Of a stretch of DNA of 40,105 nucleotides, positions 5,952-26,216 are shown piece after piece; the stretch's first letter is position 1; every line of letters starts with the position of its first letter. Both the position numbers and the translations under genes were made by a program. The DNA comes from Clostridia bacterium (lineage in GTDB: Bacteria; Bacillota; Clostridia; Christensenellales; UBA1242): positions 1 to 40,105 of the forward strand of contig JAQUUD010000001.1 in the NCBI GenBank assembly GCA_028694075.1, read 5' to 3'. The notes beneath the pieces are model-generated. The model saw nothing but the letters and a program-made list of their open reading frames with translations, did not search any database and was not told where the DNA came from.

Positions 5952-6111
5952 ATTTAATCCTTTAATTAAGATTATCACGCATTTAGTATTATTTTGTCAA
6001 GTTATTTGCTTTAAAATATATTTTTTGTTTATTTTAATATAAATTTCAAGATTTAGGTGTCTTTTTATTGTTTGTCAATTTATTATAATTTTAGCAGTGC
6101 CCGCTAATTAA

Positions 6112-6218: not shown

Positions 6219-6470
6219 AGTTTCTTTAAAATACTCTCTTTGTTTAACAATTATTTATAAAATTCGGTTAGTAAATTTTGTAAATATTTTTTACACTAAA
6301 TCCCTCAGCATAATTCAATAAACTTTCAAACCACAACTATGCCTTATTAATAACAACTTTTTCCGATCACTCTCTTTGTTTAAAAAATTAATTAACAACA
6401 TTTAATATTTTCAAATTAAACTTGTTTATCGATTTTTTGCAAATTAATTTGTCAAACAAACAAACACAAA

Positions 6471-7892: not shown

Positions 7893-7991
7893 ATCACTTA
7901 TTTTGTGCTTTTTGTTTAAAGGTATACACATTAATTTTTGACATAATTTGATAAATTTTTCACATAATAACATAGAAAAGGAAATTTTAAT

Positions 7992-8531: not shown

Positions 8532-8535
8532 AAAA

Positions 8536-8575
8536 ATAAAAAAAAGAATTGATTTCAATTCTTGTTATTTTTATG
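8536..8575. terminator. Bidirectional rho-independent terminator between convergent genes
   Basis: Stem aagaattg/caattctt with loop attt, an A-run before it and a T-rich tract after it. Confidence 0.5.
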
Positions 8576-8620
8576 AAAATTAATTTTTAACTTAATCATT
8601 AATGACATAAATTATTTTAA

Positions 8621-9709
8621 TTAAATAAACTCAAATTCTTTATCTGACGTTGTTGAATAAATTGTAATGCTTCCGTCATTATTTAAACATCTATTCAAGC
8701 CCATAAGTTTTCTTAAAGTTTTCATTGTGCTGTATGCGTGAATATCTTTATGTTCACCTTTTGCAAGAAAATACATATCAAGTTCTGTGTAAATATTTTC
8801 AACATCTAAAACCACAATAACCACTTTTTGTCCAGTTCTTGCAAGCACTGTTGCGTGATTTATTGCATTATTAACCGCTTCAAATGCATATAAAGGTTCA
8901 TTTTCAAAATAACTAACAAAATCTGTAAACTTTGTTATATATTTTTGAATTTTCAACAAACCGTCAGCTGGCACTCCAACTGCAACTATAAACAAAGAGT
9001 AGCCTTTTTTTACTAATTCATTTAACACATTTGCTTTTTTTTCAATAAATTCCATTCTGCTTGGGCTATAAATGTGTGTTTTTGAGCCTTCTTTAATATT
9101 ATCAACTATTTCAACATTGTCGTTTAATACGACATCTTTTATTGAGCAAAATTTTCGGAAACAATTTTCAAATTTTTTTCCGTTTAATTTTTCAATATCC
9201 CGTGCCATAAAATAATTTTTGCCTTTAACACCTGAAGCAATAACCGACAAATAATCTCCGGAAACTAAACCAAATTGTGCAACCAGCACATCAGGCACAT
9301 ATACCAAATCATCATCTGTTGTGCAAAAATAATAATCGTGATTGTGTTTTATGAGATAACCTTGCTTGTGTTCCATTACGCTATTAATTTCATTTTCTTC
9401 ATTTTGAGCAAACGGCAAGAACCTGTCAATTAAGATAGTATCCTTATTACGTTGTTCAGCAAAATCAAGAAGTTCCTTTGGTAATAAATCTTCCTGAAAT
9501 CCTCTTGCCATAAGTTTATTTTTAATCGGACGACCGGCTTTTTGTTTCACTGCCAATTTTTTTTCGCCTGACATAATTTGTATTATTTCATTTATCAACT
9601 TTTCTTTTTTCATAATTGTGGGAGAAGGCACGCCCCACATACGTGCGATGTTTCTCAGGTCGTGAACACCTAAATTTTCCAGTTGCAATTTTCTTTCTGC
9701 TAAATCCAT
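8621..9709 (-). CDS. Rho-derived protein: Rho_N domain, Rho-like RNA-binding OB fold and a degenerate RecA-like domain
   Basis: The N-terminus LENLGVHDLRNIARMWGV...KEKLINEIIQ resembles Rho_N. GYLIKHNHDYYF...LVYVPDVLVAQFGLVSGDYLSV parallels Rho GFGFLR...DIYVSPSQIRRFNLRTGD. The positions of Walker A (GSKTHIYSPSRMEFIE) and Walker B (VIVVLDVEN) lack GKT and the acidic catalytic context. Confidence 0.7.
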   Translation of the reverse strand: MDLAERKLQLENLGVHDLRNIARMWGVPSPTIMKKEKLINEIIQIMSGEKKLAVKQKAGRPIKNKLMARGFQEDLLPKELLDFAEQRNKDTILIDRFLPFAQNEENEINSVMEHKQGYLIKHNHDYYFCTTDDDLVYVPDVLVAQFGLVSGDYLSVIASGVKGKNYFMARDIEKLNGKKFENCFRKFCSIKDVVLNDNVEIVDNIKEGSKTHIYSPSRMEFIEKKANVLNELVKKGYSLFIVAVGVPADGLLKIQKYITKFTDFVSYFENEPLYAFEAVNNAINHATVLARTGQKVVIVVLDVENIYTELDMYFLAKGEHKDIHAYSTMKTLRKLMGLNRCLNNDGSITIYSTTSDKEFEFI

Positions 9710-9823
9710 ATTTTTCTCCTTTGTCTTATAAATGATATTCGTATATTACCTTATTTTTTGTATTTTGTATAGCCTTTCGACTATTGCAGACAAAAGCAAA
9801 CATATTTATATCAATTTCAGCAA

Positions 9824-9852
9824 ATTGTAACATAAGTTTGAATGGTTTGCAA
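9824..9852 (-). promoter_or_regulatory. Sigma-A promoter (extended -10) for the Rho-like gene
   Basis: The minus strand reads TTGCAA (9847..9852)-17 nt-TACAAT (9824..9829), preceded by TGT. Confidence 0.6.
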
Positions 9853-9956
9853 GTCTATTGTATAAAATTATCATCGTGCTTTCAAAATTAAGTTGAAATA
9901 ACCATACTTTTAATATAATTATTAATTTTTTTAATCAAAAAAGTTGCATAATCGGT

Positions 9957-10282
9957 TGGCGAAGTCAAACAAATCAAACGGACAAGTCGAACAAGTCAAA
10001 CGGACAAAGCGAGCGGGCGAAGCGGAGCGGAGCAGGGCGAGCGGGCGAAGCGGAGCGAGCGGGCGGAGCAGGGCGAGCGGGCGAAGCGGAGCGAGCGGGC
10101 GGAGCAGGGCGAGCGGGCGAAGCGGAGCGAGCGGGCAACAGTCAAACGGACAAGTCGAACTGGTCAAACGGACAAGTCGAACTGGTCGAACGGACAAGTC
10201 GAACTGGTCGAACGGACAAGTCGAACTGGTCGAACGGACAAAGCGAGCGGACAACAAGTCAAACGGACAAGTCAAACAAAAA
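9957..10282. repeat. GC-rich tandem-repeat array B (two sub-arrays)
   Basis: Sub-array 1 has 18-nt units gcgagcgggcgaagcgga and gcgagcgggcggagcagg alternating, giving a 36-nt super-period with about 3.5 copies (10009..10136). Sub-array 2 has the 22-nt unit ggacaagtcgaactggtcgaac in about 5 copies (10146..10240). The array is flanked by GTCAAAC(A/G) motifs. The + strand is nearly T-free. Confidence 0.9.
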
Positions 10283-10386
10283 GCGGGCAGGGAAGCAAAT
10301 TTTTGACCTTCAAGTCAAAAATTTTCAGCAAAACTGATTCAAGTTTTGCTGAACAAGCCTTTAAAGGCTTGTTCTTCCCTGCCCGC
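10283..10386. repeat. Nested perfect palindrome: 13-bp closing stem enclosing three hairpins, abutting array B
   Basis: Closing stem gcgggcagggaag (10283..10295) pairs with cttccctgcccgc (10374..10386). Arms are aaatttttgac-cttcaa-gtcaaaaattt, cagcaaaact-gattca-agttttgctg and aacaagcct-ttaa-aggcttgtt. On the minus strand it is followed by TTTTTGTTTG. Confidence 0.88.
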
Positions 10387-10533
10387 AATTTAGTTGGTAA
10401 AAATCCTAAAATATTAAATTATCTTTACAATAATCAATCAAATATTAATCTTACTTCAATTTAATTATTCTCAATATACTTTTTAAATTAAAATTAAAAT
10501 TCTTTACTGAACTTTTTATAAATAAATTTTTTT

Positions 10534-10599
10534 ATAAACTAAATTTTCTTATAAACTAAATTTTCTTATAAACTAAATTTTCTTATAAACTAAATTTTC
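10534..10599. repeat. AT-rich 17-nt tandem repeat, about 3.9 copies
   Basis: The unit ataaactaaattttctt is repeated perfectly at 10534, 10551 and 10568, with a partial copy at 10585. It lies just downstream of the ypeB stop. Confidence 0.9.
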
Positions 10600-10615
10600 A
10601 ATTGTTTACTAAAAA

Positions 10616-12175
10616 TTACATCAGTAAGTTTCCATTGTCTGTTTGAATAACTTTTAAAATATTCTCTTCTTTTCCGTTGCTTGAGTTAATATAAAAATAA
10701 TAATCATCACCGCCATATTTGCAAACAAATTCGTGACAAAGCACTTCTCTGCCGTAATCAAGAGGGATTAATGCCACTCTTTCTTGCGAAATTACATATT
10801 TCGCACCAATTTTGTTTCTTGCTGTATCAACCGACACACTGCCTTTTTGAAGACTTCTTTCAACGTGATTCATATAATATGAAGTTGCTTCATAACCCAA
10901 TACAATTCCATTATATAAATCAATTTTTAGTTTTACAAGGTCAGGATATAAAATTATATCATTTTGGACAGGTGCAAGATTAATAAAGGCATTTCCGTTT
11001 ACTGTGTCACTCCAAACAACTTTCATATTTTCAAGTTTATTCTTTTTTGCAAAGTCTAATGCAATTGCTTCAGCATTTTTTAAGGTAAGTTTTTTGCCTT
11101 TACTTCCTGACTCATTTTGATTAATGTTTTTTTCCTCAATTTCTTCTGTATCAACTTTATTCTCCACTATTTCGCTTTGTGTGGTTTCTTTGACATTTTT
11201 TTCACTTACATCAGGATCTTCTTTATTAAATTTAGTTGAATTTGTATTTTTATTTTTAAAATTTTCATAACTTTCGTTTTCTTCCTTATTTGCGTTATAA
11301 GCAGAAAGGGTCAATAAATGTCCGCCAACCTTGCTCATTTGCACAAAAGCGACTATATCTTTTTCATTTTCCTTTGCCTGAACTCTAAAATTATATGTTT
11401 GGAAATTGCCATTTGATTCATTTTCAAGTTCTACCATTTCATCGGTGTAATCACTGAAAATCTCTAGCAAAGTTGCTTTTGCTGTGCCTTCATCAACAGT
11501 GTTGCCTTTCAAGCCCTTAACTTCTTTTTTAACCTGAGAATCTGAGAACGGACCATCATAAATTAGAACCGGATATTCAACTCCTTCGGGCTTTATTGAT
11601 TTCATATCAATCGTGAAACCATTAAAATCACCATTTAGGCTATTCGATGTTTTTACAATACTATAACCATTCCACATATCTTTGGTCATTAGATTCAATG
11701 AATCTTTCATATCTAAAACGGAATCATAAATATTTTCAAGTTCTTTGATTTGGGTTGAACTTAATTTTTGCCCTTTGACCAAATTTTTACTTAAAGTTTC
11801 GGTGTAACCGCCAACTTGATTTATGAAAGCAATGCCTTCATCAAGGCCATTCATTGAATAAGGCAAATTGTTTAAATTTTCTTGTGCCATAACTGCATTT
11901 CTGCTGATTTGGTCAAGCATTTTTGCCTGATACTCTTCGTCAGTTGATGACAAGGTTTTGGCTAATTTGGTTTCAGTGTTGTTTATATTATCCACCAAAT
12001 CATAAAAATTCTTTTGATAAACATCTTCCAAATCCAGTGCAGTGTTCATTGCGTTTTGCATAGTTACTGCATAAAGAATTAATGTGATTAACAAAAGTGC
12101 ACTTAAAATCCAGACTGCAATCACCAGCGCTTTGTTATTTTTTATAATTTCTTTTGTCTTGCTTTTTTCTGCCAT
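10616..12175 (-). CDS. ypeB: Germination protein YpeB
   Basis: N-terminal TM anchor, YpeB-like middle region and C-terminal PepSY-like repeats. It lies directly downstream of sleB as in Bacillus and Clostridium. The RBS is aaaaaggagatt. Confidence 0.85.
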   Translation of the reverse strand: MAEKSKTKEIIKNNKALVIAVWILSALLLITLILYAVTMQNAMNTALDLEDVYQKNFYDLVDNINNTETKLAKTLSSTDEEYQAKMLDQISRNAVMAQENLNNLPYSMNGLDEGIAFINQVGGYTETLSKNLVKGQKLSSTQIKELENIYDSVLDMKDSLNLMTKDMWNGYSIVKTSNSLNGDFNGFTIDMKSIKPEGVEYPVLIYDGPFSDSQVKKEVKGLKGNTVDEGTAKATLLEIFSDYTDEMVELENESNGNFQTYNFRVQAKENEKDIVAFVQMSKVGGHLLTLSAYNANKEENESYENFKNKNTNSTKFNKEDPDVSEKNVKETTQSEIVENKVDTEEIEEKNINQNESGSKGKKLTLKNAEAIALDFAKKNKLENMKVVWSDTVNGNAFINLAPVQNDIILYPDLVKLKIDLYNGIVLGYEATSYYMNHVERSLQKGSVSVDTARNKIGAKYVISQERVALIPLDYGREVLCHEFVCKYGGDDYYFYINSSNGKEENILKVIQTDNGNLLM

Positions 12176-12286
12176 TTTTTTAATCTCCTTTTTTTTATTT
12201 TATATTAAAATAAGTTTTTTTCATATAATCTTAAAATTAGTTATAAATTAAATTAAAATTTTATGAGCGATTGTAATTTAATATAT

Positions 12287-12967
12287 TTAAATTGCAAAGG
12301 TGTGTTTTCCTATTGTTGTTACAACTTTTTTACCAAATATCCATTTATTGGTTGCTTTAACAGGGTTGTAATAGAATAAACAACCATATGTTGGGTCCCA
12401 GCCGTTTAAGGCATCTTGTGCCGCTTGATATGCAGTGCTGTTTGGCTCTAATTTGATTTGCCCGTCGTTTACTGCCGTGAATGCCCACGGTTGATAAACA
12501 ACTCCGCTTATGGTGTTTGGGAAATCAGGGCTTTTTACTCTGTTAAGAATTACGGCGGCGACCGCAACCTGTCCGGCATAAGGCTCGCCTCTGGCTTCAG
12601 CATATACACACTTAGCGAGCAAATATACATCTGAACTGGATTGATATTTTCCAGTTGAAATGCCAAGTGCTTTTAAAGTTTGTGGACCAATAATGCCGTC
12701 AACTGCCAGCCCATTAACTTTTTGAAAATATTTAATCGCTGTTTTGCTTTTTGGTCCTATGATGCCATCTATTGCACCGGTGTAATAACCCCAATTTTTA
12801 AGTTTTTGCTGTATTGCCTTGTTTTCTGAAACGGTGGCAGTTGTTACAGTATTTTCAGTATTAAAAAAATTATTATTCATATTAAGAGCGTGAATTGTTA
12901 GAACTGACAGTCCGCCAAAAAGCAAGACCGTTACCATAAAAACTGCAAAAAATCTTTTTCTGAACAT
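12287..12967 (-). CDS. sleB: Spore cortex-lytic enzyme SleB
   Basis: Signal peptide, two peptidoglycan-binding repeats (GIIGPKSKTAIKYFQ and GIIGPQTLKAL) and a hydrolase-2 domain (CVYAEARGEPYAGQVAVAAVILNRVKSPDFPNTISGVVYQPWAFTAV). Confidence 0.93.
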   Translation of the reverse strand: MFRKRFFAVFMVTVLLFGGLSVLTIHALNMNNNFFNTENTVTTATVSENKAIQQKLKNWGYYTGAIDGIIGPKSKTAIKYFQKVNGLAVDGIIGPQTLKALGISTGKYQSSSDVYLLAKCVYAEARGEPYAGQVAVAAVILNRVKSPDFPNTISGVVYQPWAFTAVNDGQIKLEPNSTAYQAAQDALNGWDPTYGCLFYYNPVKATNKWIFGKKVVTTIGKHTFAI

Positions 12968-13088
12968 ATCTTTTTCTCCTTATTTGCTATTATGTTGCAA
13001 ATATCAGCAAATTATTCAAAAATAAAATAAGATTATTCTGTTTGCAAAGCAATATGAAGTTAAAAATTATTATAGTTAAGGAGAAACA

Positions 13089-13607
13089 ATGAAATATTTA
13101 GCCATAACACTTTCAATTATTGCAATGCTCGGTATACTTATTTTTTCACAGCCTTTGGCAGTTGAAGCAAGCGATTATTTAAGAATTCATATTCGCGCAA
13201 ACTCAAACAGTGAACAAGACCAAAATGTTAAATATCAAGTTAAAGATGCTATTGTGGATTATCTTATTCCTTTATTATCCACTTGTGAAAGCAAGGAAGA
13301 TGCACAAAAAACGATTGAACAAAATTTAGTCAATCTTGAAGCAGTTGCGGATAATGTTTTAATGCAAAATAATTTTAATTATGCAAGCAATGCAAAATTA
13401 AATTATGAAAATTTCCCTGCGAGAAATTATGGAAACTTAACTTTGGAAAGCGGATTTTATGATGCTTTGATTATGGAATTAGGCGAGGCAGATGGCGATA
13501 ACTGGTGGTGCATTGTTTATCCGCCATTATGCTTCATCAACGGCAGTACATCTGTAAGTTCATATAAAAGTAGAATTTTAGAAATCATTAATTCCTTCTT
13601 TGATTAA
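13089..13607 (+). CDS. spoIIR: Stage II sporulation protein R
   Basis: Signal peptide followed by YLRIHIRANSNSEQDQNVKYQVKDAIVDYL and ...GDNWWCIVYPPLCF, which are SpoIIR hallmarks. The RBS is aaggagaaacaATG. Confidence 0.9.
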   Translation: MKYLAITLSIIAMLGILIFSQPLAVEASDYLRIHIRANSNSEQDQNVKYQVKDAIVDYLIPLLSTCESKEDAQKTIEQNLVNLEAVADNVLMQNNFNYASNAKLNYENFPARNYGNLTLESGFYDALIMELGEADGDNWWCIVYPPLCFINGSTSVSSYKSRILEIINSFFD

Positions 13608-13642
13608 AAAAAACTTTGTTTTGTAAATAATAGTTGATTAAA

Positions 13643-13743
13643 ACGGCGACTAAAAGGAAATTTTGCAAACGCAAAATTTTTCAAGATAAAATCTTGGGCT
13701 TGATTTTAAGCGTACGCTTAAAATCAAGCCTTTTAGTCGCCGT
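13643..13743. repeat. Nested perfect palindrome: 15-bp closing stem enclosing three hairpins
   Basis: Closing stem acggcgactaaaagg (13643..13657) pairs with ccttttagtcgccgt (13729..13743). Arms are aaattttgc-aaac-gcaaaattt, caagat-aaa-atcttg and the 32-nt perfect palindrome gcttgattttaagcg-ta-cgcttaaaatcaagc. Confidence 0.88.
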
Positions 13744-13929
13744 GTTCGCTTTCGTGCGATTTAATATGCTATATGTTCGTTCACTTGAAGTTAGAAAAAA
13801 TGCCAAAAGTAAATATACTTTCGACATTTTTTTAATCGTGTTTTTTGATTTTTTTTTAATAAAAACTAGATGTCTTTTATTATTAATTTATAATTACAAT
13901 TATATGTTTTTTATTAATGAATAAAATTT

Positions 13930-15489
13930 TTAATATTCAATGTTTTTTTTGGCTAAGAGGATTGAGGTCGGGTTTACATTTTTTTGATGATATATTATTA
14001 TGTTGCAGTTTTCGGATAGCGGGCTGTTGATTTCCGGATTTTGTTCAACTATCACTTCGGGGCGTGTTCTTAATTCTTTGGCGATGTCCCACATTTTGTC
14101 GCCGGTTTTGCCGAAATAAATTTCAATCGCTTCTTCTTTCATAGGAAGTGGCTCGCCCATTATTGCATCTGTTATCAAAGTGCCTTTTAAGGCTCCGAAA
14201 AATCTTACACTTGCTTTAATTTTGGCATCTAAAAACAGTTCTCTGCCCCGCCTTGCAATAACATCAACATCACATAAAACAAGTCTTGCACAGATGTTGA
14301 AACTTGCCTCCACTTCGGTTTTTTCTGATATTATATAAGGTAAATCTTTTTTAACGCAATTTATGGTTTGTGTTTCATCATTTAGATACACAACATTGAC
14401 GCTTACAATGCCTTCCAAAACGATTTCCCCGTCTTTAATGTATTGATTTGTTGGTTTTATAATGCCTTTTGACACACCTAACAATTTGTCAATTCTTGGC
14501 TCTTTTTCGCTTAGCGAAATGCTCCCTTCAATTTTGCTTTCAAAATACATTGCAGAAACAATTTTCGTTCTTTCATAATCATTGCTTACAATTTCCAAAT
14601 TATTTTTTAATGAAAATAAATCTGATGCACACGCAATTTTAATTTCTTCATATGCTTTAAAACACAAATCAAGAGGCACAGTAATAATTACATTTGAGCC
14701 GTTTTCAATGTTTTCTTGCTCAAACTTTAAATTTTCCTTTTTAACATTAATTTCAATTTCAACACTGGAGTTTTCTGACAATGAACCCACTTCAATCTCC
14801 CGCTTGAAACTTTCAACAGCCGATACTGATATAATCCTTTCTGTTTCTCCGCAAATAACGTAAAATATTTTTGTAAGCAGTTCACCTTGAACAATGAAAA
14901 AGTTTGCATTGCAAGTTATGTCCTTAATCACAACATCAGTGCAGACGGAAATAATTCGGTCAAAAGATTCCGTTATTGTGACTTTTTGTTCTTCATTGAA
15001 TGTTATGCAGTCATCTTTCAAAAGTTTTTGCGAAACAATTTCATCTTCTTTAAGGCATATATTTTCATCTCCGCCGTTTAATAATTCCAACTCGTTTACA
15101 CTTGTTATATCAACATCAAAATTAATAATAGAAGAAACCCTTGAATTACTTTCTTCAAAGTTTATATCGCTGATTGTTGCATTAAGATTTATTTTTGTTG
15201 TTGGATTAACATTTTCATTAATAAATTTAGTTAAAAATGGCAAACTGGTTTCCGCCGTACAAACTTTATTTTCACTATCAATAAAAACGGCTTCAATCAT
15301 CGCTTTGCCTGAAACACTGATTTCCTTTGTTAGTGGCTCAACACTATCAATCTGCGGGCAAGCATTAATCCAAAGCATTTTTTGAAAATCTCCGCCACTG
15401 ATGCTATTAATTGCACCGTCCAGCATAATTTGTTCACCTTTTAGTCTGGATTTTTTAATAAAATTGCATCTGCTTTTTTCAAATGACAT
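13930..15489 (-). CDS. DUF3794 (SPOCS) repeat protein with C-terminal LysM domain, probably spore-associated
   Basis: 519-aa ORF with RBS ggaggtttgaaatATG. It has repeated beta-rich SPOCS-like modules and a LysM-like C-terminus (IEIYFGKTGDKMWDIAKELRTRPEVIVEQNPEI..IIIY). Confidence 0.75.
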   Translation of the reverse strand: MSFEKSRCNFIKKSRLKGEQIMLDGAINSISGGDFQKMLWINACPQIDSVEPLTKEISVSGKAMIEAVFIDSENKVCTAETSLPFLTKFINENVNPTTKINLNATISDINFEESNSRVSSIINFDVDITSVNELELLNGGDENICLKEDEIVSQKLLKDDCITFNEEQKVTITESFDRIISVCTDVVIKDITCNANFFIVQGELLTKIFYVICGETERIISVSAVESFKREIEVGSLSENSSVEIEINVKKENLKFEQENIENGSNVIITVPLDLCFKAYEEIKIACASDLFSLKNNLEIVSNDYERTKIVSAMYFESKIEGSISLSEKEPRIDKLLGVSKGIIKPTNQYIKDGEIVLEGIVSVNVVYLNDETQTINCVKKDLPYIISEKTEVEASFNICARLVLCDVDVIARRGRELFLDAKIKASVRFFGALKGTLITDAIMGEPLPMKEEAIEIYFGKTGDKMWDIAKELRTRPEVIVEQNPEINSPLSENCNIIIYHQKNVNPTSILLAKKNIEY

Positions 15490-15588
15490 ATTTCAAACCT
15501 CCATCATTTCTTTATATTTTATTAAGAGAAATTGTAGAATATGACTAACCAGACAAATTTTAGGAAATAATCGAAATCAGGGGGCTTT

Positions 15589-15831
15589 ATGAAACGGAAC
15601 ATAATCGCGCTTGATGATATAAAAAAAAGAATACTTGAATTAAAGGGCAATACAATTAATATGGAAATCAACAAAGGTCGAAACAAAATCGACACTTTTA
15701 AAGCCATAATCATAAGCGTTTATCCCAGTGTTTTTACTGTTGAAGCATTTGTAAGCCAGAGGCAAAGCCGTTCGCAAACATTTTCTTATTTTGATGTTTT
15801 ATGCGGAGATGTAAAAATAACGCCAGTATGA
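15589..15831 (+). CDS. veg: Veg protein (biofilm formation stimulator family)
   Basis: 80 aa. It contains LDDIKKRILELKGNTINMEINKGRNKIDTFKAIIISVYPSVFTVE, which resembles B. subtilis Veg. Confidence 0.88.
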   Translation: MKRNIIALDDIKKRILELKGNTINMEINKGRNKIDTFKAIIISVYPSVFTVEAFVSQRQSRSQTFSYFDVLCGDVKITPV

Positions 15832-15850
15832 TATTTTTCATACCGGCGTT
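15817..15850 (+). terminator. Hairpin overlapping the veg stop codon (putative terminator)
   Basis: aacgccagtatg-atattttt-cataccggcgtt forms 11 of 12 pairs. The downstream T-tract is weak. Confidence 0.4.
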
Positions 15851-15956
15851 AATTATTAACATTTAAGTTCATTTCCATATAAATATTTTTAATGGAATTG
15901 ATATTTAAAATTAAATAAAGGAACTAATATTATTAAAATAATTTATTAAACAAAAT

Positions 15957-16454
15957 TTATATGTCGTCATCATCATCTTTGTCGTCGGATTCATCAGCAT
16001 CAACCTCTTCAAAGTCGTCTTCGTCGGATTCAGAATCTTCGTCATCTTCCCCTGCGTCTTCTTCAAAATCTGCGAATTCAAGGTCAGATTCAATTAAATC
16101 AGCGCCCAAAATATCTTCATCAAGTTCTGAAACAGATGCCATTTCGCCTGTTTCTTCATCTTCTACATAATCTGTTTCGTCACGATTTATATATTCGTCC
16201 CATTCCTGTTCAATGTCTGTGTCATCAACAATGGAATGTTTCCTTTCTTTTAAGCAAGTTGCACACATTATTTCATCAGGTTGGATATAATTTGTTTTAC
16301 AAATCGGACATAACTCCAAATCTAAATCATCAATTAGAAAATCTTTATTGCCGTTCATTTCGGCTTTGCAAACAGAACAATATTTATCTTTTTTTAAACA
16401 ATAATTTAACTCACATCTAGGACATCTGATATAAACAGGTTTTTTATCAGCCAT
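15957..16454 (-). CDS. Double zinc-ribbon protein with a poly-acidic C-terminal tail
   Basis: Two CxxC...CxxC pairs (CPRC..CSVC and CPIC..CATC) are followed by about 90 aa rich in D/E, ending DDKDDDDDI. The RBS is ggaggaaaaATG. Confidence 0.75.
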   Translation of the reverse strand: MADKKPVYIRCPRCELNYCLKKDKYCSVCKAEMNGNKDFLIDDLDLELCPICKTNYIQPDEIMCATCLKERKHSIVDDTDIEQEWDEYINRDETDYVEDEETGEMASVSELDEDILGADLIESDLEFADFEEDAGEDDEDSESDEDDFEEVDADESDDKDDDDDI

Positions 16455-16546
16455 TTTTCCTCCAAAAGTTATAGCTTGATTTTATCTTTAATATTATTTT
16501 AATTTTTAAAACTTATTCTTTGTTTTCTAAATTTTTAATTTAAGTT

Positions 16547-17929
16547 CTATTCTTCGGTTTCTTCTGGCATATCTTGTTCATCTAAAAATCCAACCAATTC
16601 AATTATGCCATCATTCCCGCGTTCTGCATTTCTTACATCTGCTCTATGCATATAATATGTTCCGGTGCTATTTACTTCACTTGTTTTATAAAAATATACA
16701 TATTTTCCATCAAATCCAATATTAGTTGTTTTAAAACTTTCACAAAGAGCCACAGTTTGAACAACTTTGTCTAAAACAGAAATTCTGTAAATCCCCTCAT
16801 TTTCAACAGCGTAATAAACATAATCGTTATAAGCAAATAAAATTTCAATTGCACTTCCAACAAGCAAATTGCTTTCAGAAAAATCTTTGCTTCCACTTTG
16901 AAGGCAATAAGTTTTATTAACATTATCAGTTGAAACTGCGAATATATAATATGTTCTATCATTAGAATTTGATTTTAAACTCAAAAAATTGTTTACTGTG
17001 ATGTTATCAATCGGGTTAGAAATTTTTACAGCCGTAGAAAAAGCACCACTTGAATATGAATAATAATATGTCAAACTATCAGAGTCATTCATTGTGAAAT
17101 GCAAATTTCCATTCACAACGCTAACTGGCGTTATTGTCTTATTTGAATAACCTATTTCATTCATTAATGTTGAAATGCCAGTTGTTATATCAAGTTTATA
17201 AATATAAGTTCCAGTTTGCCCTAAATTTATTAATTCGTCGCTAATATCAGTTGTGTAATAAATATATTTGTCATTTTCTTCTGCGACAGTTTTTGCAAAA
17301 ACCACATTTTTAATTTCAGTTGCAATTGTTTCTGCTCTGCCAATTGAATTGCCCAGTTCAATTTTAACAACTGAGGTTCCATCTTGAAAAATCAAATAAT
17401 TTTTATTTTCAACCTTTAAAATTGTTTGATTTGAAACTTCGGTTTCAGTTGTATAAATTTCAGATAAATTTGTACCATCGGTCTTAACACGAAAATATGT
17501 TGTTAATTCAAACTTATCTGCTGAACTCATATCTTTGCGAGAGTTCGGCGATGCAAAATATATATAATCGTTAATGCTGAATAAAAAAGTATGGTCACTG
17601 CCTAAAACCTTTGAAAGGACAAGTTCAACATTCTCCGGCATATTTGTTTCTTCATCATATTCAATTTTATTGTCAACCAGTTTAACACGATAAAGTGCCT
17701 CATTTATTACATTTCCTATGTCATTATCATTCTTTGTAAGTGAAGAGAAAGATTTAAAAGCGTTTGCAAAATAAATATACTCTTCATATGCCAAAGCATC
17801 GCCTGTTGTGACCATTTCGGCTGTTACAGTGGGAGCCGTTAAAAGTGGCTGAGCACAACCATAAAATGTCATAATTGAAACTATAAAACAAGCCAAAAAT
17901 GAAAATATTATTTTTATTGTTTTTTTCAT
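16547..17929 (-). CDS. Lipoprotein with beta-propeller-like repeats (DUF5050-like)
   Basis: Signal peptide with lipobox (TFYGC). It has repetitive Y/N/T-rich beta-strand modules (YIYF, YIYY, YVYY, YVYFY). The domain assignment is tentative. Confidence 0.7.
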   Translation of the reverse strand: MKKTIKIIFSFLACFIVSIMTFYGCAQPLLTAPTVTAEMVTTGDALAYEEYIYFANAFKSFSSLTKNDNDIGNVINEALYRVKLVDNKIEYDEETNMPENVELVLSKVLGSDHTFLFSINDYIYFASPNSRKDMSSADKFELTTYFRVKTDGTNLSEIYTTETEVSNQTILKVENKNYLIFQDGTSVVKIELGNSIGRAETIATEIKNVVFAKTVAEENDKYIYYTTDISDELINLGQTGTYIYKLDITTGISTLMNEIGYSNKTITPVSVVNGNLHFTMNDSDSLTYYYSYSSGAFSTAVKISNPIDNITVNNFLSLKSNSNDRTYYIFAVSTDNVNKTYCLQSGSKDFSESNLLVGSAIEILFAYNDYVYYAVENEGIYRISVLDKVVQTVALCESFKTTNIGFDGKYVYFYKTSEVNSTGTYYMHRADVRNAERGNDGIIELVGFLDEQDMPEETEE

Positions 17930-18273
17930 ATAATCTCCGTTAGAATTAAATTCGCCTGAAAAATAAATAATTCAATTATTTTTAAATTGCTTTCATAAGA
18001 ATATCATTAATGAAATTCAATGTCAACTAATTTAAATTAAAATTTTAATTTTTCCACTCAGGCAAAGACATATTTAAAATTTTTTTTAAAACCCTTATAA
18101 TGATTTTAATAAAATTAGACAAGAATATCTTATTACAAATTGACTAAGAAACATTTATCCTATTTTATCAAAATAAGTAATTAAAATTCAACTTTAATAT
18201 CAAATTAAAAAATTTTTATATATTTAAAAAATTTAATCACATTTAATTAAACTGCTTAGAATTAAATAAAATC

Positions 18274-19242
18274 TTACATACTTCGGTCTTCGGTTAAATC
18301 ATTTTGTTTTTCAAACGCTGTTTTAGTTCTTCTAGTATATCTATTAATATCTTGACTTATTTTATATTTTATGTAACTCGTATTAAAACTTTTAACTAAA
18401 TCTGTATATCTTATTTTATAAAATTCTTTTTCCTGATTTGTTTTTGATTGTTTTATTCGTTCATTGCAAATTTTTTTCATATCCGTGGGAAGTCTTTCTA
18501 ATAATTCCTTATTTTCAAAAATATCAAACAACCATTTAATTGGAGAAATTTCTTTGCTTACGTTTCTTTTAACATTGCAAAACAAACCCGGGAAAAAGCA
18601 ATCAGACAAAAGATTGATATATGAACTTTCTTTTTCCGTGAAATAATCAATACATTTTGGATATTTTGCTATCATATCAACCATAAAATCAACATTTTTC
18701 CTTAATTTTTCTGGAACGGAAAGCATTGCAATAGGATCCTTTTTGATTGCTATTTCCATAACTTCGGGATCTTTCAAAAAATTATGTACAGCATAATGAC
18801 AACCATTTTCAATGGCAAAAATGCAAAAGTCTTTATCTGATTGAAGTTTTCCAGCAATAATAAAAGCATTAGGGCTGACTTTTATAAGGTTTTTGGCAAA
18901 TTCAATATCATTTTCAAGCAGTCTGCTGTCAATAAACAATAATGCACGTTCATCATAACCAACCGCCTTCAACATAACATTTTTATGTCTATTAAATTGG
19001 ATATTAAGGAAAAATCCAAGTTTTATTTTTTTTTGTTTTGATTTATCATTGTAAATTCCTGAGAAAGAATTGTCAATTAGTGGGAAATGATAATTTCTAT
19101 TGATTTGTTTTATTTGCTCTGATTTTTTTCTTAAATTTTCTTCGGTTAAAATCTTGCCTACTCTTTCTAAAACTTTTTCTAAAATGGCTTCTTCTTTTTC
19201 GGTTAATATTATTTGCTCTTTTTCATCTATTTCATTTTCCAT
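18274..19242 (-). CDS. DUF4116-like repeat protein
   Basis: 322 aa with RBS aaaaggagaatttaATG. It has repeats of the type ..SPNAFIIAG..SDKDFCIFAIENGCHYAVHNFLKDPEVMEIAIKKDPIAMLSVPEKLRKNVDF, as in DUF4116. Confidence 0.7.
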   Translation of the reverse strand: MENEIDEKEQIILTEKEEAILEKVLERVGKILTEENLRKKSEQIKQINRNYHFPLIDNSFSGIYNDKSKQKKIKLGFFLNIQFNRHKNVMLKAVGYDERALLFIDSRLLENDIEFAKNLIKVSPNAFIIAGKLQSDKDFCIFAIENGCHYAVHNFLKDPEVMEIAIKKDPIAMLSVPEKLRKNVDFMVDMIAKYPKCIDYFTEKESSYINLLSDCFFPGLFCNVKRNVSKEISPIKWLFDIFENKELLERLPTDMKKICNERIKQSKTNQEKEFYKIRYTDLVKSFNTSYIKYKISQDINRYTRRTKTAFEKQNDLTEDRSM

Positions 19243-19526
19243 TAAATTCTCCTTTTTTTAAAACATTGTTTTATTTTCATAAATTCAAAATATTTATTAA
19301 ATATTCCAATTATTCTATTTTTGCTTTGATTTGTGTTTGTTCATTACTCGTTTTGTTTAAATTTATCCTACAACTTGCATATAAATATATTACTTAAATT
19401 CAACAAATTAATAAATTTTTTTAAGTTTATAATACCACAATTTCTAAAAATGTCAATAATAAAAAATTTCAAAAATTCTTCAATAAACTGAAAAAAATTT
19501 GGGTTTGTATTTATTAAATTTCAAAA

Positions 19527-19572
19527 AAACCAGCCCGCCCGCTCGCGACAAGTTAATGCACACTCGCCAATT
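19527..19572. repeat. Solo GC-rich repeat core in inverted orientation
   Basis: ccagcccgcccgctcgcgac carries the reverse complement of GCGAGCGGGCGGG. It lies upstream of a + strand gene. Confidence 0.5.
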
Positions 19573-19787
19573 CTTCTAATTTTAACTCGATCATTTTTTT
19601 AATAATGATATTTCCAATTTGTCAGTAATTAAAAATATTCAAATTGAGTAATTTATTAAATATTTTAATAATTTTCAATATTTTAGTTAACTTATAAAAT
19701 TAATTCGTATAAAATCGCTTATATTAATAATGCTAATTATATCTATATTAAATTATTTGCTAGTATAAAAAATTACTAAGCTTTCAG

Positions 19788-19816
19788 TTGACTTATGCAG
19801 AATAATGGATTATTAT
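19788..19816 (+). promoter_or_regulatory. Putative sigma-A promoter for the 19871 gene
   Basis: TTGACT-17 nt-TATTAT, about 55 nt upstream of the start codon. Confidence 0.45.
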
Positions 19817-19870
19817 AAAATAATTTGTAATGCATATTTTAATTAATATAAAAAATGGAGGATTTACAAA

Positions 19871-21175
19871 ATGTTTATGTCAAATAAAGGAATGCAAAAA
19901 CTTATTGCAAGCGGAATCGCATTGCTTATGTCGTTGACAGCACTGTTTGTGACAGCTTGGGCAATTTTAAGCACTGAAAAAGTGGGTTTGAGTGTTAATA
20001 TATCTTTTGACCCAGCAGTCACCACCAAAGTCTATTTGGCAACGGACAGTAGTTCGGCGGTGGATTTCAAACAACCGAATTCAACTGTAACTGCTGAAAA
20101 CTTTGCAAAAGCAAATTCAGCTTTGATTTTAGACACCAAAGATGGAAACTCACTTCAAAAAGACGCATTTGAACTATTGGGTGCGGACAATGGTTTGAAA
20201 TGCGATGCAAACGGCGAAATGGAGTTTTATGTTTTTGTTGAAAATTACAGCGAAACTGAGAGCGTCTATTATCGTGCAAATATAAACTTTGTTGGCACGG
20301 GCGAACAAGTTGCACCATTTAGCACAGTAACTAACCCTAGTTTTGAAACCGCCGGAACTGCCTTGGGAGTTGAAAGCCCTTCCATAAGCCTGCTTATCTT
20401 TAAAATTCTATCTGATAGTGACACGGGATTAAACGCAAACACAATTCAAATTGAGATTGATTTATCTACATCATTCGCTTCAATATTGGGTTTAGCACAA
20501 TATACTTCTGGAAATTATAGTGGGCTTTTTTATATTGACATGGGGGAATATCCACAAACACAAGAAATAAACACTGAAATAATATCAGGTATAACTGGTG
20601 AACCCGATGCAAATAATTATTATACAAGTTCAGTAAATGGAGAAAAATATGCTAGAAGAGGCACCGATCCAAATTATACTTACTATTTAGTCGAACCAGT
20701 AAGATGGCTTGTTATAGGAAATAGCGGAACTTATGCTGATTTTCCTAATAAAAACTTTGATACTTTAGGATCTAACCAACTGCTCTTAATTAGCGAAAAT
20801 TTAATATCTGCATCAACTTATAGTGTCAATTTAAATAATCCATTAGGAAATACAATATTTAGTGATTTAGAAAAAAATAAATTAAGCAAGTTCGGAAATA
20901 ATCAATATCTTTACTCGTTGTCAAAAGACACAGAAGGTTATCCATATAGAATCGATTATTATTTAACTGTAAATCAAAGTAGATGTTCACCAACAGCATA
21001 TGCTTCTTCAATATTAAATTTATATGCTTCTGATAGATTTTGGGTACAAAGTCAAAATTATGCAGCAACGCTGAAAAAATATGCAATTCATAGTAATATG
21101 GGAACCTATTATTCTTCTGTTTCTGAAACTACTAATATTCTTTTAGTTCGCTCTACAATCATTTTAAATTTTTAA
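19871..21175 (+). CDS. Secreted or anchored protein: conserved N-terminal beta-rich domain plus DUF6273-like C-terminal domain (paralogue 1)
   Basis: RBS ggaggatttacaaaATG and signal anchor MQKLIASGIALLMSLTALFV. The N-terminal ~200 aa are highly similar to the 23759 gene. The C-terminus has EPVRWLVIGN, NQLLLISE, RFWVQS and VRSTIILNF, resembling the DUF6273 motifs W.VL, LLLS, WWLRS and GVRPA. Confidence 0.8.
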   Translation: MFMSNKGMQKLIASGIALLMSLTALFVTAWAILSTEKVGLSVNISFDPAVTTKVYLATDSSSAVDFKQPNSTVTAENFAKANSALILDTKDGNSLQKDAFELLGADNGLKCDANGEMEFYVFVENYSETESVYYRANINFVGTGEQVAPFSTVTNPSFETAGTALGVESPSISLLIFKILSDSDTGLNANTIQIEIDLSTSFASILGLAQYTSGNYSGLFYIDMGEYPQTQEINTEIISGITGEPDANNYYTSSVNGEKYARRGTDPNYTYYLVEPVRWLVIGNSGTYADFPNKNFDTLGSNQLLLISENLISASTYSVNLNNPLGNTIFSDLEKNKLSKFGNNQYLYSLSKDTEGYPYRIDYYLTVNQSRCSPTAYASSILNLYASDRFWVQSQNYAATLKKYAIHSNMGTYYSSVSETTNILLVRSTIILNF

Positions 21176-21409
21176 ATAAGAATACAAACAAACTCCAGTT
21201 AAAATATTTTGCAGGAATTTGTTATTTAAATAAATTAGTTATAATAAATTATTTGCAAAAAGTATTTCGTCGGAGTTATGTTTTAAATAAATTCTTAAAA
21301 TAATTATTTTATAGAACTATCTTTATTAAGTTTAATTCGACAAAAAACTGATAGCAAAAAAATTTCATAGTTTTAGTAATTTTGATAATAGTTTTTTAAA
21401 GAAAGATAT

Positions 21410-21503
21410 TTCGCCGGCAGAGGTTGGCTTTGAAAAAGCCAACGCAAACACGAAAGTGTTTGCTGGGATTTGAGATTTTCTCAAATCCCGCTCTGCCGGC
21501 GAA
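21410..21503. repeat. Nested perfect palindrome: 13-bp closing stem enclosing three hairpins
   Basis: Closing stem ttcgccggcagag (21410..21422) pairs with ctctgccggcgaa (21491..21503). Arms are gttggcttt-gaa-aaagccaac, gcaaacac-gaaa-gtgtttgc and gggatttgaga-ttt-tctcaaatccc. A T-rich tract follows on the + strand. Confidence 0.88.
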
Positions 21504-21767
21504 TTTTATTTTATAACTAAACTTTTCAATTCACTTCTTAATTAAACTAAACTGATTTTAAAAAAGCAATGAATAATGTTAAACAATATAGAGTTTTTTA
21601 TTCGCTAACGAATATTATAATTCATTTCTTCTTAACTAAATTATATTATATCAAATAAAATTTAATATAAAAAATCAACAAGCCTTTTATTCTAGCCTAT
21701 CCACTAATAAAATCTTAATTGTTCTTGATTAGAATTTAACATTTATAAGTTGGTTAAGTCTATGTGT

Positions 21768-22181
21768 TTATTTAATATCCGAATTATCTTCTTTCTTCTT
21801 GTTTTCTTTGTCCAAGCGGGAGTAATAATTTTCGACGGTGGCTTTGATTGCTTCTTCAACAAAAATTGCACAGTAGATTTTGTTAAGTGGCAATTTGCCG
21901 AGTGCGCTTATTATATCAAAATCTTTTATTTGCAAAACTTCTTCCAATGTTTTATCTTTGACCAGTTCGCAAGCAACATTTGCCGAAGCGATTGTAACAG
22001 GGCAACCGAAAACCTTAAAGCGAGCATCTTCAACGACTTTTGTTTCGTCATCAACTTTGAAATAAAGTTTGACAACTTCCCCACTTGCATCATTTTTTAT
22101 GTTACAAACAGCATTCGCGCCATGCAGTCCGCCGGCGTTTTTTGGCTTCACAAAATTTATTGTAACTCTTTCGTCATACAT
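21768..22181 (-). CDS. nifU: Fe-S cluster assembly scaffold NifU/IscU
   Basis: GANAVCNIKND...ARFKVFGCPVTIASANVACELVKDKTLEEVL has the IscU-type three-Cys layout. The RBS is cggagaataaaATG. Confidence 0.9.
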   Translation of the reverse strand: MYDERVTINFVKPKNAGGLHGANAVCNIKNDASGEVVKLYFKVDDETKVVEDARFKVFGCPVTIASANVACELVKDKTLEEVLQIKDFDIISALGKLPLNKIYCAIFVEEAIKATVENYYSRLDKENKKKEDNSDIK

Positions 22182-23430: not shown

Positions 23431-23758
23431 ATTACTTAAAGTTCCTTTATTTTGTATTAATTATTATATCTTTTATTAAAAACAATGTCAACAGTGGTTT
23501 TTGAAAGAAATTTTAATTTTAGACACAAAAGCAAAAATTTGTAAAAAAAGTTCTTGAAATTGAAATTTGAGTAGACTTTTGCAAAATTTTGTGATATTTT
23601 TATATAAAGAACAAATAATAAAGTAAAATGACAAACAATACATAGATAGATATAACAAAAAAATTAATTAATATAAAAATTAAACGAAAATGTTAGGATA
23701 ATAAATATAAAACATAAGTTTTGATTAAAAAATATAAAAACTTAAAATGGAGTATTTA

Positions 23759-25114
23759 ATGATAAGATTTAATAAAGGAATGCAAAAACTTATTGCAAGC
23801 GGGCTGGTTATTATTTTTTGTTGTATAACTTTGTTTGCAGGAATACTTGCAATATTGAGTAATACTAAAATGGGGCTAAGCGTTAATGTGTCATTTGATT
23901 CAGCGGTAACCGCCAAGGTTTATCTTGCTACAAATAGTAATACTGATATAAATTTTAAGCAACCAAATGATTCTGTTACTGCTGAAAATTTTGCAAAACC
24001 AAATTCTGCCATAATTTTTAATACATATAACATTGACACAAATGGTGGAAAAACAAAAACTTCGTTTGAGCAGTTAGGCGCTAATGAAGACTTGGGCTTA
24101 AAATGCGATGCCAACGGCGAAATGGAATTTTATGTTTATGTGGAAAATTACAGCACCACGGAAATTATTTATTATCGGGCGAATATTGACTTTGTTGGCA
24201 CGGGCGAACAAAGTGCACCTTTTAGCACAGCAACCAATCCTTTCTACGAAACTGCCGATACTGCTGTGGAAGTGAACGACCCTTCAATAAGCCTGCTAAC
24301 ATTTAAAATCAGTTCGGATAATGCCACAGGTATAACTGCAAATGCAATCAGAATTGAAATTGATTTACAAACGGAATTACCTTGGGAGTGGTTAGGTGTA
24401 ACGGGCAAATATACTTCAGGCAGTTATAACGGGCTTTATTATGTCGATTTTGGCGAATATCCACAAAGTTTATATGGAACCACACAGCCAACTGGAACAA
24501 TTTATAATTCCACTTCAGGATATTATGAGAATCTTGAAACAGGTAAAAAATATGAATTATATAGTACTAAATACTATAATGTTGAACCTGTTAGATGGCT
24601 TGTTATTGGAAATGGTAATAATTATAATAATGCTAATTTAGGATTTCCAAATATAAATTCTGATAATCTGGCATCGAATCAACTGCTTTTGTTCAGTGAA
24701 AAAATTATTGCAGGCTCTACATATGGTAGTGGGGCTAATGTTTTATGGACGAATGTAAGTTTATATAGCACCTTATCTAATATGAAAGACAAAATGTTTA
24801 GTCCGGAAACAAATTTGGGAACATTCGATGATGGTTCACAATTATCCATTTTATCTTCCACCATGCTATCTTATAAATATTCTAATTATTATTCAGGAGC
24901 ATTAGCTTTAGCATTAACTTGCACTAAAACCAGCTGGGCAACTACAATTGGCTTTGATCTTGCAGAATATTATTGGCTTAGGCGAGTACAAACATCAGCT
25001 GTTTTTTCGGGTTATACTTATACAGATGGTGCAAGATATACTACCGGAGCCGTTAGTGAAATTCGCACCACTTATGTTGCAGGTATTCGCCCGATTATTA
25101 TTTTAAATGTTTAA
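23759..25114 (+). CDS. Secreted or anchored protein: conserved N-terminal beta-rich domain plus DUF6273-like C-terminal domain (paralogue 2)
   Basis: The start is taken at ATG 23759 (ggagtatttaATG). The ORF track begins at 23747, inside the RBS. It contains EPVRWLVIGN, NQLLLFSE, YYWLRR and AGIRPIIILNV. Confidence 0.8.
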   Translation: MIRFNKGMQKLIASGLVIIFCCITLFAGILAILSNTKMGLSVNVSFDSAVTAKVYLATNSNTDINFKQPNDSVTAENFAKPNSAIIFNTYNIDTNGGKTKTSFEQLGANEDLGLKCDANGEMEFYVYVENYSTTEIIYYRANIDFVGTGEQSAPFSTATNPFYETADTAVEVNDPSISLLTFKISSDNATGITANAIRIEIDLQTELPWEWLGVTGKYTSGSYNGLYYVDFGEYPQSLYGTTQPTGTIYNSTSGYYENLETGKKYELYSTKYYNVEPVRWLVIGNGNNYNNANLGFPNINSDNLASNQLLLFSEKIIAGSTYGSGANVLWTNVSLYSTLSNMKDKMFSPETNLGTFDDGSQLSILSSTMLSYKYSNYYSGALALALTCTKTSWATTIGFDLAEYYWLRRVQTSAVFSGYTYTDGARYTTGAVSEIRTTYVAGIRPIIILNV

Positions 25115-25958: not shown

Positions 25959-26216
25959 GGTCTAACGGGCAAATCAAACGGGTCAAACGGACCGAGCGAG
26001 CGGGCGAGCCAGAGTCTAACGGGCAATTCAAACGGGTCAAACGGACCGAGCGAGCGGGCGAGCCAGAGTCTAACGGGCAATTCAAACGGGTCTAACGGAC
26101 CGAGCGAGCGGGCGAGCCAGAGTCTAACGGGCAATTCAAACGGGTCTAACGGACCGAGCGAGCGGGCGAGCCAGAGTCTAACGGGCAATTCAAACGGGTC
26201 TAACGGACAAATCAAA
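25959..26216. repeat. GC-rich tandem-repeat array C (54-nt period, about 4.5 copies)
   Basis: The unit gtctaacgggcaattcaaacgggtc(t/a)aacggaccgagcgagcgggcgagccaga has ACCGAG phase markers at 25991, 26045, 26099 and 26153. It shares the GCGAGCGGGCG and CAAACGGG/TAACGGAC motifs with arrays A and B. Confidence 0.9.

Follow-up and report, generated by a model that had tools for sequence, protein, structure and literature searches.

What does a long, nested palindrome do in the gap between two genes that run towards one another? The palindrome in question, which we call E4, lies at positions 21410-21503 of a 40,105-nt stretch of DNA (the window), which is an entire contig of an uncultured gut-type Clostridia bacterium. 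As proposed in a first-pass annotation of the same DNA, the flanking genes are convergent: a gene at 19871-21175 (+ strand; stop at 21175) faces nifU at 21768-22181 (- strand; gene end at 21768), and E4 stands 235 and 265 nt from the two gene ends. Analysis of its fold, its recurrence and its homologues reveals a class of elements that is real, statistically extreme and evolutionarily maintained. On balance, and with modest confidence, we favor the reading that E4 is a lineage-specific branched intrinsic terminator or 3′-end RNA module, a new variant of the theme of terminators and 3′-end palindromes.

Sequence reading and an inverted-repeat scan reveal a 13-bp closing stem around three perfect hairpins of 9, 8 and 11 bp, in exact agreement with the first-pass annotation, down to one GAAA tetraloop and a T-rich tract on the + strand. 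The 5′ arm of the closing stem, TTCGCCGGCAGAG (21410-21422), pairs perfectly with the 3′ arm, CTCTGCCGGCGAA (21491-21503; placed by the inverted-repeat scan and a comparison of pairs with the relative L099); nine of the 13 pairs are G-C, and 68 nt are enclosed. These consist of hairpin 1 (GTTGGCTTT-GAA-AAAGCCAAC, 21423-21443, 9 bp, perfect inverted repeat I15), hairpin 2 (GCAAACAC-GAAA-GTGTTTGC, 21444-21463, 8 bp, perfect inverted repeat I23), a single T, hairpin 3 (GGGATTTGAGA-TTT-TCTCAAATCCC, 21465-21489, 11 bp, perfect inverted repeat I11) and a single G, and the 3′ arm is followed at once by TTTTATTTTAT. The arms and hairpins are not assigned to a strand.

Folding of both strands with RNA and DNA parameters gives a four-way junction in every case. 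As RNA, the + strand reaches a minimum free energy (MFE) of -67.9 kcal/mol (z = -12.4) and the - strand -64.0 kcal/mol (z = -11.5), with 0 of 200 shuffles as stable in either case; DNA parameters return the same junction, with z = -12.2 and -11.7 for the two strands. The closing stem is worth -26 kcal/mol (-66.2 kcal/mol with it vs -40.0 for the three hairpins alone), and its pair probabilities are 0.96-1.0, with 0.74 for the terminal pair. Unbranched alternatives were evaluated individually as explicit structures, and the best of them, at -34.8 kcal/mol, falls far short of the -66.2 of the junction, which stays the MFE structure at temperatures up to 80 °C. The first-pass annotation had named a single extended hairpin and other competing folds as the threat to its interpretation; in these calculations the junction wins and the closing stem dominates the ensemble. 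The flanks of E4 are also partly complementary to one another (inverted repeat I1, which appears in the MFE structure as well), as in bidirectional terminators.

E4 has counterparts in the window. A sliding 120-nt fold over the whole of it yields four outliers, E1-E4, at -55 to -84 kcal/mol (next window, -41.6), and all four have a common design of one 12-13-bp closing stem and exactly three perfect hairpins. E1 (6112-6218; 63% GC; -83.8 kcal/mol) combines a 12-bp closing stem with hairpins of 11, 15 and 8 bp. E2 (10283-10386) has a 13-bp closing stem and hairpins of 11, 11 and 8 bp, with TTTTTGTTTG next on the - strand, the sense of YpeB. E3 (13643-13743), between the convergent spoIIR and a SipL-like gene, has a 13-bp closing stem and hairpins of 9, 6 and 15 bp. 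A fifth element, cut by the contig start (1-34), retains its last hairpin (CAATGCC-TTTG-GGCATTG) and its 3′ outer arm CGGCTTCCGCCGG, then AACTTTTTAA. None of these features is assigned to a strand either. The four complete copies at transcription-unit ends counted in the first-pass annotation are thus joined by a cut fifth, and all five are located downstream of gene ends, at gene 3′ ends within 40 kb. Throughout, the closing stems are GC-rich and worth -19 to -27 kcal/mol, stems measure 6-15 bp and loops 3-6 nt, and the junction leaves 0-2 nt unpaired. The helix interiors (~170 bp) are 100% Watson-Crick, with no G.U pair on either strand, and two of the inner hairpins are spacerless palindromes, GCGTACGC and TTTAAA.

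Could such folds arise by chance, or in the assembler? A perfect-stem detector found no junction in 20 dinucleotide shuffles of the window. A relaxed detector, run on the window and ~1.2 Mb of relatives, returned seven three-hairpin junctions and one two-hairpin junction, against 0 and 1-2 in local shuffles; the shuffles therefore match the two-hairpin count but not the three-hairpin count, and the three-hairpin form is specific. Assemblers do struggle with these elements, several contigs ending inside them: further assemblies of this organism are short, most of them stopping within E3 or E4, with breaks that recur in L001, L083, L091 and L092, and the elements thus bias the contiguity of metagenome-assembled genomes (MAGs) built from short reads in this lineage. 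Yet L090, an independent contig, spans E3 intact, which argues that the elements are not assembly artefacts, and L001, from an independent run, holds part of E4. With z near -12, shuffles devoid of junctions and homologues in other species, a chance match or an assembly artefact is effectively refuted. The idea that contig ends in relatives' MAGs hide further palindrome copies also found no support: hairpins occur at 7 of 80 ends vs 3.5% of interior windows, and those hairpins are tRNAs and simple terminators.

The copies within the genome have little sequence in common. E1-E4 are mutually unalignable (pairwise global scores <=2), which bears out the earlier statement that their arms are unrelated, but only in part: the outer arm and 3′ flank of the 1-34 element align with those of E1, the last hairpin being different, and, judged by sequence, at least this one pair within the genome is related. 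E1 and E4 also have CCGGCGAA in common, in opposite orientation. The outer arms of E1, E3 and E4 carry a CCGGCGAA/CGGCGA motif that is suggestive, its significance only near p = 0.05 by a rough estimate, and the flanks of E1-E4 have no common motif beyond short, probably chance k-mers. The first-pass annotation had further proposed a family defined by its architecture. The recurrence of the design, far beyond chance, supports this, but architecture is not all that defines the elements, as each has a heritable sequence that is recognizable in other species.

These homologues come from syntenic contigs of relatives, reached via SpoIIR homologues of 94% to 67% protein identity to the window SpoIIR; contig scans beyond the window gave distant relatives (NifS identity <=79%) and two loci. 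Each element type has homologues there, E4 in L099, E2 in L094, L099 and L097, and E3 in L093. The E4 homologue, L099 113-206, aligns with E4 at a score of 50, compared with <=1 for the other window elements, and lies in a different gene context, adjoining a tRNA operon at a contig end. Among 37 aligned pairs, five changed on both sides, none on one side only and none was broken, a result reached by 8 of 500 shuffles. Four of the 13 closing-stem pairs changed on both sides and hairpin 1 carries one compensatory pair (G-C to A-U), while hairpin 2 has an identical stem and one different loop base; hairpin 3 keeps its outer 7 bp, and its inner part is remodelled symmetrically in both arms. Two hairpins changed length, again symmetrically. 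The compensatory switches in E4 are all transitions, the G.U-mediated route reported for Bacillus cereus terminators (PMC5381666).

The other types behave alike. E2 orthologues lie downstream of YpeB in L094 and L099, both with compensatory changes, and another E2-type copy occupies the spoIIR/SipL site in L097. Between E2 and L094 there are at least five double changes as well as symmetric indels, and 42 of 42 pairs are Watson-Crick; these changes were read helix by helix from sequences and folds, as a MAFFT alignment of the four E2-type copies was not structure-consistent. The E3 orthologue in L093 (SpoIIR 94%) shows 7 differences in 101 nt, located in 3 of 11 loop nt vs 4 of 86 stem nt and hence mainly in loops; of the four in stems, two make one compensatory pair, and the two others, both transitions, leave G.U on the - strand and A.C on the opposite one. 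Overall, identity between species is 81-90% of aligned columns, at least that of coding DNA (77-84%).

The same comparisons bear on whether the elements are selfish or a mutational by-product, palindromes that spread, or that arose by template switching where intergenic sequence is prone to structure, and that are tolerated rather than used. Template switching has been documented both to give rise to hairpins and to make them perfect (PMC8794818), and several observations fit: the E2-type copy in L097 sits at another site (downstream of spoIIR), the E4-type copy in L099 has other neighbors, L006 contains two copies side by side with outer arms that repeat the 3′ end of tRNA-Val, L025 has tandem copies, E1 and the 1-34 copy share arm and flank and not the last hairpin, and tandem repeat arrays adjoin E2 in three species. 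Nevertheless, there is no multi-copy sequence family, since a covariance model of E4 recovered only the two homologues in 1.27 Mb and BLAST with the elements returned only self-matches and orthologues, and neither terminal inverted repeats nor target duplications nor transposase genes came to light, although target duplications were not searched systematically. Compensatory change without broken pairs, between species whose coding DNA is ~77-80% identical, indicates purifying selection. We therefore seriously doubt that the elements are mere by-products.

What might selection act on? Directly against the closing stem of E4, on the + strand, lies the U-tract TTTTATTTTAT (21504-21514), the proposed termination point of gene 19871-21175. 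It has 8 T in its first 10 nt, where the intergenic mean is 3.6 and P(>=8) = 0.02. On the other side, 21398-21409 is A-rich on the + strand, so that on the - strand the stem is followed by AUAUCUUUCUUU, with 6 T in 10 nt, a weaker candidate U-rich tail for nifU. All available E2-type copies (window TTTTTGTTTG, L094 TTTTTTGTTTG, L099 TTTTTCCC) have a run of at least five T immediately against the closing stem, always on the same relative side, and so has the E4 type (window TTTTATTTTA, L099 TTTTTCG). In L097_B, T-runs stand on both sides of the element, and in L025 the order A5-stem...stem-T5 comes directly past a stop codon.

The elements also trade places with simple terminators. At the spoIIR/SipL convergent site, the window, L093 and L097 have a junction, and L094, L102 and L084 a simple terminator of A-tract, hairpin and T-tract; downstream of YpeB, the window, L094 and L099 have a junction and L097 a simple hairpin. 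The latter contains G.U (paired by hand), and its 5′ arm, GCAGGGAAGAA, is identical to the E2 outer arm, so that E2 resembles a terminator hairpin with three further hairpins inserted in its loop. Measured against what defines an intrinsic terminator, E4, E2 and the orthologues of both have a GC-rich stem followed by a U-tract, which E1 and E3 lack; E4 lies in sense position downstream of a transcription unit, at an unusually long distance, and, being a four-way junction, departs from the single unbranched hairpin with a short apical loop. It is the interchange with ordinary terminators, together with the conserved T-runs and the transition-type compensatory switches, that leads us to read E4 as a branched terminator.

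How could such a terminator work? We infer that the three local hairpins would fold first as E4 is transcribed and would then draw the GC-rich outer arms together, the 13-bp closing stem zipping just before the U-rich UUUUAUUUUAU of the + strand. The closing stem would act like the single hairpin of a Rho-independent terminator, and transcription of 19871-21175 would stop there. Since all pairs of E4 are Watson-Crick, the opposite strand folds identically; with the weaker U-rich tail AUAUCUUUCUUU behind it, this fold probably limits read-through from nifU, and E4 is thus probably bidirectional, with weaker activity towards nifU. The compact junction (-64 to -68 kcal/mol) may in addition cap the mRNA 3′ end against 3′-exonucleases, its stability making 3′-end protection likely too, as reported for REP (repetitive extragenic palindromic) elements of E. 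coli. As to origin, a simple terminator hairpin may have been elaborated, with perfect arms made or repaired by intrastrand template switching.

If these elements are terminators, a multi-branched fold can take the place of the single hairpin in bacterial intrinsic termination, a design that current terminator predictors would miss and that results in a very stable 3′ end. The fixed number of three hairpins, upheld across species by compensatory change and with no shared sequence among copies within the genome, suggests a constraint, which could come from avoidance of long perfect palindromes or long dsRNA, from a requirement of the folding pathway or from a factor that reads the shape. Another use could be as insulator parts, compact, strong and bidirectional, in low-GC Firmicutes.

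Several observations weigh against termination as the main function. In the sense direction of the upstream gene, no U-tract follows the closing stem of E1, E3 or the L093 orthologue of E3. E1, E2, E4 and the 1-34 copy lie 230-265 nt beyond the stop codon (E1, with no U-tract on the - strand, 253 nt past that of a cyclase-domain gene), which is far for a terminator, and the SipL-like and Tex-like genes already have closer, simple terminators (13795-13835 and 181-222, respectively). Termination theory neither explains why there are exactly three inner hairpins nor gives a reason why E2 orthologues always adjoin tandem repeat arrays. The helix interiors free of G.U fit a constraint at the DNA level or a copying mechanism at least as well as selection on one RNA strand. 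Finally, E2- and E4-type copies stand at different loci in different genomes, with local duplications in L006 and L025. Owing to these misfits in U-tracts, distance, hairpin number, G.U content, arrays and location, readings as an RNA module, a DNA-level element or a by-product stay alive.

In the first of these, E4 is a structured RNA module whose main job is other than termination: an exonuclease block or mRNA stabilizer, a platform for processing or protein binding, or a small RNA (sRNA) from the 3′ untranslated region (UTR), with the junction itself being recognized. The exact three-hairpin rule does suggest a recognized shape, as 7-8 three-branch elements stand against a single two-branch one, a number that chance would give, and the elements are conserved about as well as coding DNA. 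Moreover, E1 and E3 are still maintained despite lacking U-tracts (for E3 an orthologue is known), two of the upstream genes possess their own terminators, the L025 junction alternates with a conserved sRNA-like tail of 65 nt in a tandem array, and REP elements show that 3′-UTR palindromes can serve as both terminator and stabilizer. However, perfect stems without bulges or internal loops, and loops neither conserved nor fixed in size, offer little for specific recognition; the U-runs are conserved in the E2 and E4 types, and no convincing promoter lies directly upstream of E4. We consider such a module credible but unlikely.

The uniform Watson-Crick pairing is among the points in favor of a function in DNA, in which a single-stranded or supercoil-extruded four-way structure would serve a protein of replication, recombination, segregation or the nucleoid, for instance one that binds junctions. 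Both strands fold identically, DNA parameters give the same structure with z near -12, the helix interiors are Watson-Crick throughout and include the spacerless GCGTACGC and TTTAAA hairpins, and the AT-rich flanks would ease extrusion, as they do in C-type cruciform extrusion. For comparison, the simple hairpin at 15818-15851 and other simple terminators of the window contain G.U pairs. Yet the closing arms are ~70 bp apart and able to pair only in a single strand, the two uncompensated L093 changes are G.U on one strand and A.C on the other, a DNA-level role does not readily explain a U-run conserved on one defined side or the interchange with RNA terminators, and no recombinase or other partner gene is nearby. 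A role of this kind appears quite improbable.

A broader view, which we offer tentatively and hold to be on the speculative side, would make the elements a new clade-specific class of heritable four-way junctions whose shape, not their sequence, is read by a dedicated factor that marks the boundaries of transcription units (a junction-specific nuclease, or a protein that binds RNA or DNA junctions), or which act as exonuclease-proof 3′ caps. The inner hairpins would then be a fast-evolving, replaceable cassette, termination would be one facet of the function or incidental, and a functional link would exist between the elements and the GC-rich tandem arrays found beside E2 in three species.

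Does a known system already account for E4? At gathering threshold, Rfam finds only RNase P and tRNA in the whole window and no family for any element; at E <= 5, over 5900-21800, sub-threshold chance matches fall on E1, E2 and E3, with none over E4 and no tRNA at the elements. No bacterial element made of a closing stem and three hairpins was described in the literature that we searched. In function, the nearest analogues are bidirectional intrinsic terminators and REP elements; in architecture, they are nested palindromes of the type found in the inverted terminal repeats (ITRs) of adeno-associated virus (AAV), and the tRNA cloverleaf.

The likeness to intrinsic terminators lies in the GC-rich stem followed by a U-run (E2, E4), the flanking A- and T-tracts, the position at gene 3′ ends, evolution by compensatory Watson-Crick switches (PMC5381666) and replacement by ordinary hairpins at orthologous sites. 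The differences are that the apical loop has become three full hairpins, that a 94-107-nt junction stands in place of a 20-40-nt stem-loop, that some elements have no U-tract and that most lie 230-265 nt past the stop. REP elements, which are reported to act both as terminators and as mRNA stabilizers (bioRxiv 10.64898/2026.03.23.713779), and the related BIMEs (bacterial interspersed mosaic elements) of enterobacteria are likewise extragenic palindromes in 3′ UTRs and between convergent genes. They are, however, high-copy, conserved in sequence, imperfect single hairpins and linked to RAYT (REP-associated tyrosine transposase), whereas our elements are unalignable, perfectly paired and branched. 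A REP/BIME family of many copies with one consensus was rejected for E1-E4, given pairwise scores of <=2, BLAST matches to self and orthologues only and no other copy found by the E4 covariance model in 1.27 Mb; no RAYT or IS200-IS605-type transposase is present among the window genes. Template-switch mutations, which create hairpins (PMC8794818), offer an explanation of where long perfect stems come from, and likewise arms that copy nearby sequence in inverted form (the E2 arm resembles the motif of the adjacent array, and the L006 arms equal a tRNA end). They are a mutational mechanism and not a functional class, and leave the three-hairpin design and the conservation across species unexplained.

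Among modular intergenic repeats, the pneumococcal BOX element has pairing terminal modules around variable internal hairpin modules; it is intergenic and conserved in sequence, exists in >100 copies and varies in module number. BOX and repeats resembling miniature inverted-repeat transposable elements (MITEs) thus share with E4 a modular, intergenic build of closing modules around hairpins, and the difference from BOX is that our elements always have three hairpins and that copies within the genome share no sequence. A MITE or other non-autonomous transposon was rejected: the outer arms differ among the four complete copies, only E1 and the 1-34 copy share an arm, and there is no common flanking motif, target-site duplications not having been searched for as such. 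The ITRs of parvoviruses such as AAV and the foldbacks of Streptomyces telomeres form the ends of linear replicons, where they prime replication as three-way (T or Y) structures. They are nested in the same manner (A-B-B'-C-C'-A'), with a closing stem around small perfect palindromes and folding in the single strand, but our elements are chromosome-internal, four-way and at gene ends.

The tRNA cloverleaf, too, is a closing stem with three arms; copies in relatives measure 72-82 nt, and the L006 arms copy the tRNA-Val 3′ end. With loops of 3-6 nt, the elements nonetheless have no anticodon, D or T loops, and their stems are 6-15 bp. A tRNA or tRNA-like identity was rejected, as ARAGORN and the Rfam tRNA model (RF00005) are silent at the element sites; ARAGORN reports no tRNA or tmRNA there, and the only tRNA of the window is tRNA-Trp at 4324-4397. 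An integron attC site, an imperfect hairpin with extrahelical bases and R/L boxes that adjoins gene cassettes and an integrase, is contradicted by perfect, bulge-free stems and by a window without an integrase; by eye, and with no pattern search made, the arm ends show no GTTRRRY core. A single-strand origin of a phage or plasmid, or another mobile replicon, was rejected as well: blastn against 72,556 plasmids and 50,697 phages gave no matches, the conserved core matched no viral contig, and the neighbors are housekeeping and sporulation genes.

The contig is 32% GC and carries such genes throughout (Tex, RNase H, YpeB, SpoIIR, SipL-like, NifS/NifU, Clp ATPase, HPF, RecX and ribosomal proteins), with no transposase, integrase or phage gene among them. 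It is 77% genic, low for a bacterium, with twelve spacers >300 nt and an intergenic GC content of 27%. The gene upstream of E4 had been labelled DUF6273 in the first-pass annotation, a label that Pfam, which gives no match of any kind, does not sustain; 19871-21175 and 23747-25114, which has no Pfam match either, are paralogues, 48% identical, and a DUF6273 protein is present in L099. Both paralogues look like insertions by comparison with L094 and L097, in which the DUF4116 gene stands next to NifU, or NifS next to the following gene. It would appear, consequently, that E4 arrived with or after a lineage-specific gene insertion.

The spacers around E4 contain no convincing small open reading frame. 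In a promoter scan, promoter-like sites were barely above the shuffled expectation; none upstream of E4 was convincing, and the best candidate would initiate inside the outer arm. The idea that E4 is a stand-alone sRNA gene thus finds no support. On the + strand, a 10/12 promoter-like site precedes E1 by ~90 nt, and a direct repeat, ACTCTCTTTGTTTAA (6233-6247 and 6369-6383), flanks 136 nt between E1 and the cyclase-domain gene.

The window also holds non-coding tandem arrays, GC-rich (57-78%) and purine-rich, on the - strand (3153-3686, 9962-10277 and 25960-26208), with a short version at 128-168 and a single motif at 19533-19552. They share GCGAGCGGGC (36 matches vs 0.4 expected) and GTCTAACGGG, and for the most part their periods are not divisible by 3. 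Each is placed between - strand genes of the same direction, and its RNA would, like a Rho-utilisation site, be rich in C and poor in G. One array adjoins E2, and the E2 orthologues adjoin arrays with different repeat units (L094 1-75; L099 3900-4060). In L099, TTCCCTGCCTGTGTTT, which forms the 3′ outer arm of the E2 orthologue, recurs in about six scattered copies at 4150-4330, between the element and the YpeB stop; in the window, an AT-rich 17-nt repeat, TTATAAACTAAATTTTC, occurs in five copies at 10516-10599, between the YpeB stop and E2.

Other contigs show further arrangements. In L025, from a related Clostridiales MAG, 13272-13720 (- strand) consists of three tandem 146-nt units, each a three-hairpin junction with a conserved tail of ~65 nt (GGTACGGGCGGAAATC...CGATATTTCCTACTAC); the hairpins of the third unit are wholly different in sequence, with the same design. 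Rfam assigns no family to this array. The tail also stands alone at 2420-2490 (- strand), with promoter-like and terminator-like signals, and is a candidate unannotated sRNA. In L006 (Ca. Caccopulliclostridium), the closing arms of two adjacent junctions (18861-18932 and 19016-19096) copy the tRNA-Val 3′ end, CTCCCACCA; their inner hairpins have diverged, and a TTAAGAACCTT motif occurs four times around both elements. In L004 (7631-7721), sequence past tRNA-Gly is complementary to the variable/T-arm region of that tRNA (GGCAAGGGTCGC...GCGACCCTTGCC), and the two complementary stretches enclose the tRNA 3′ end and a terminator hairpin.

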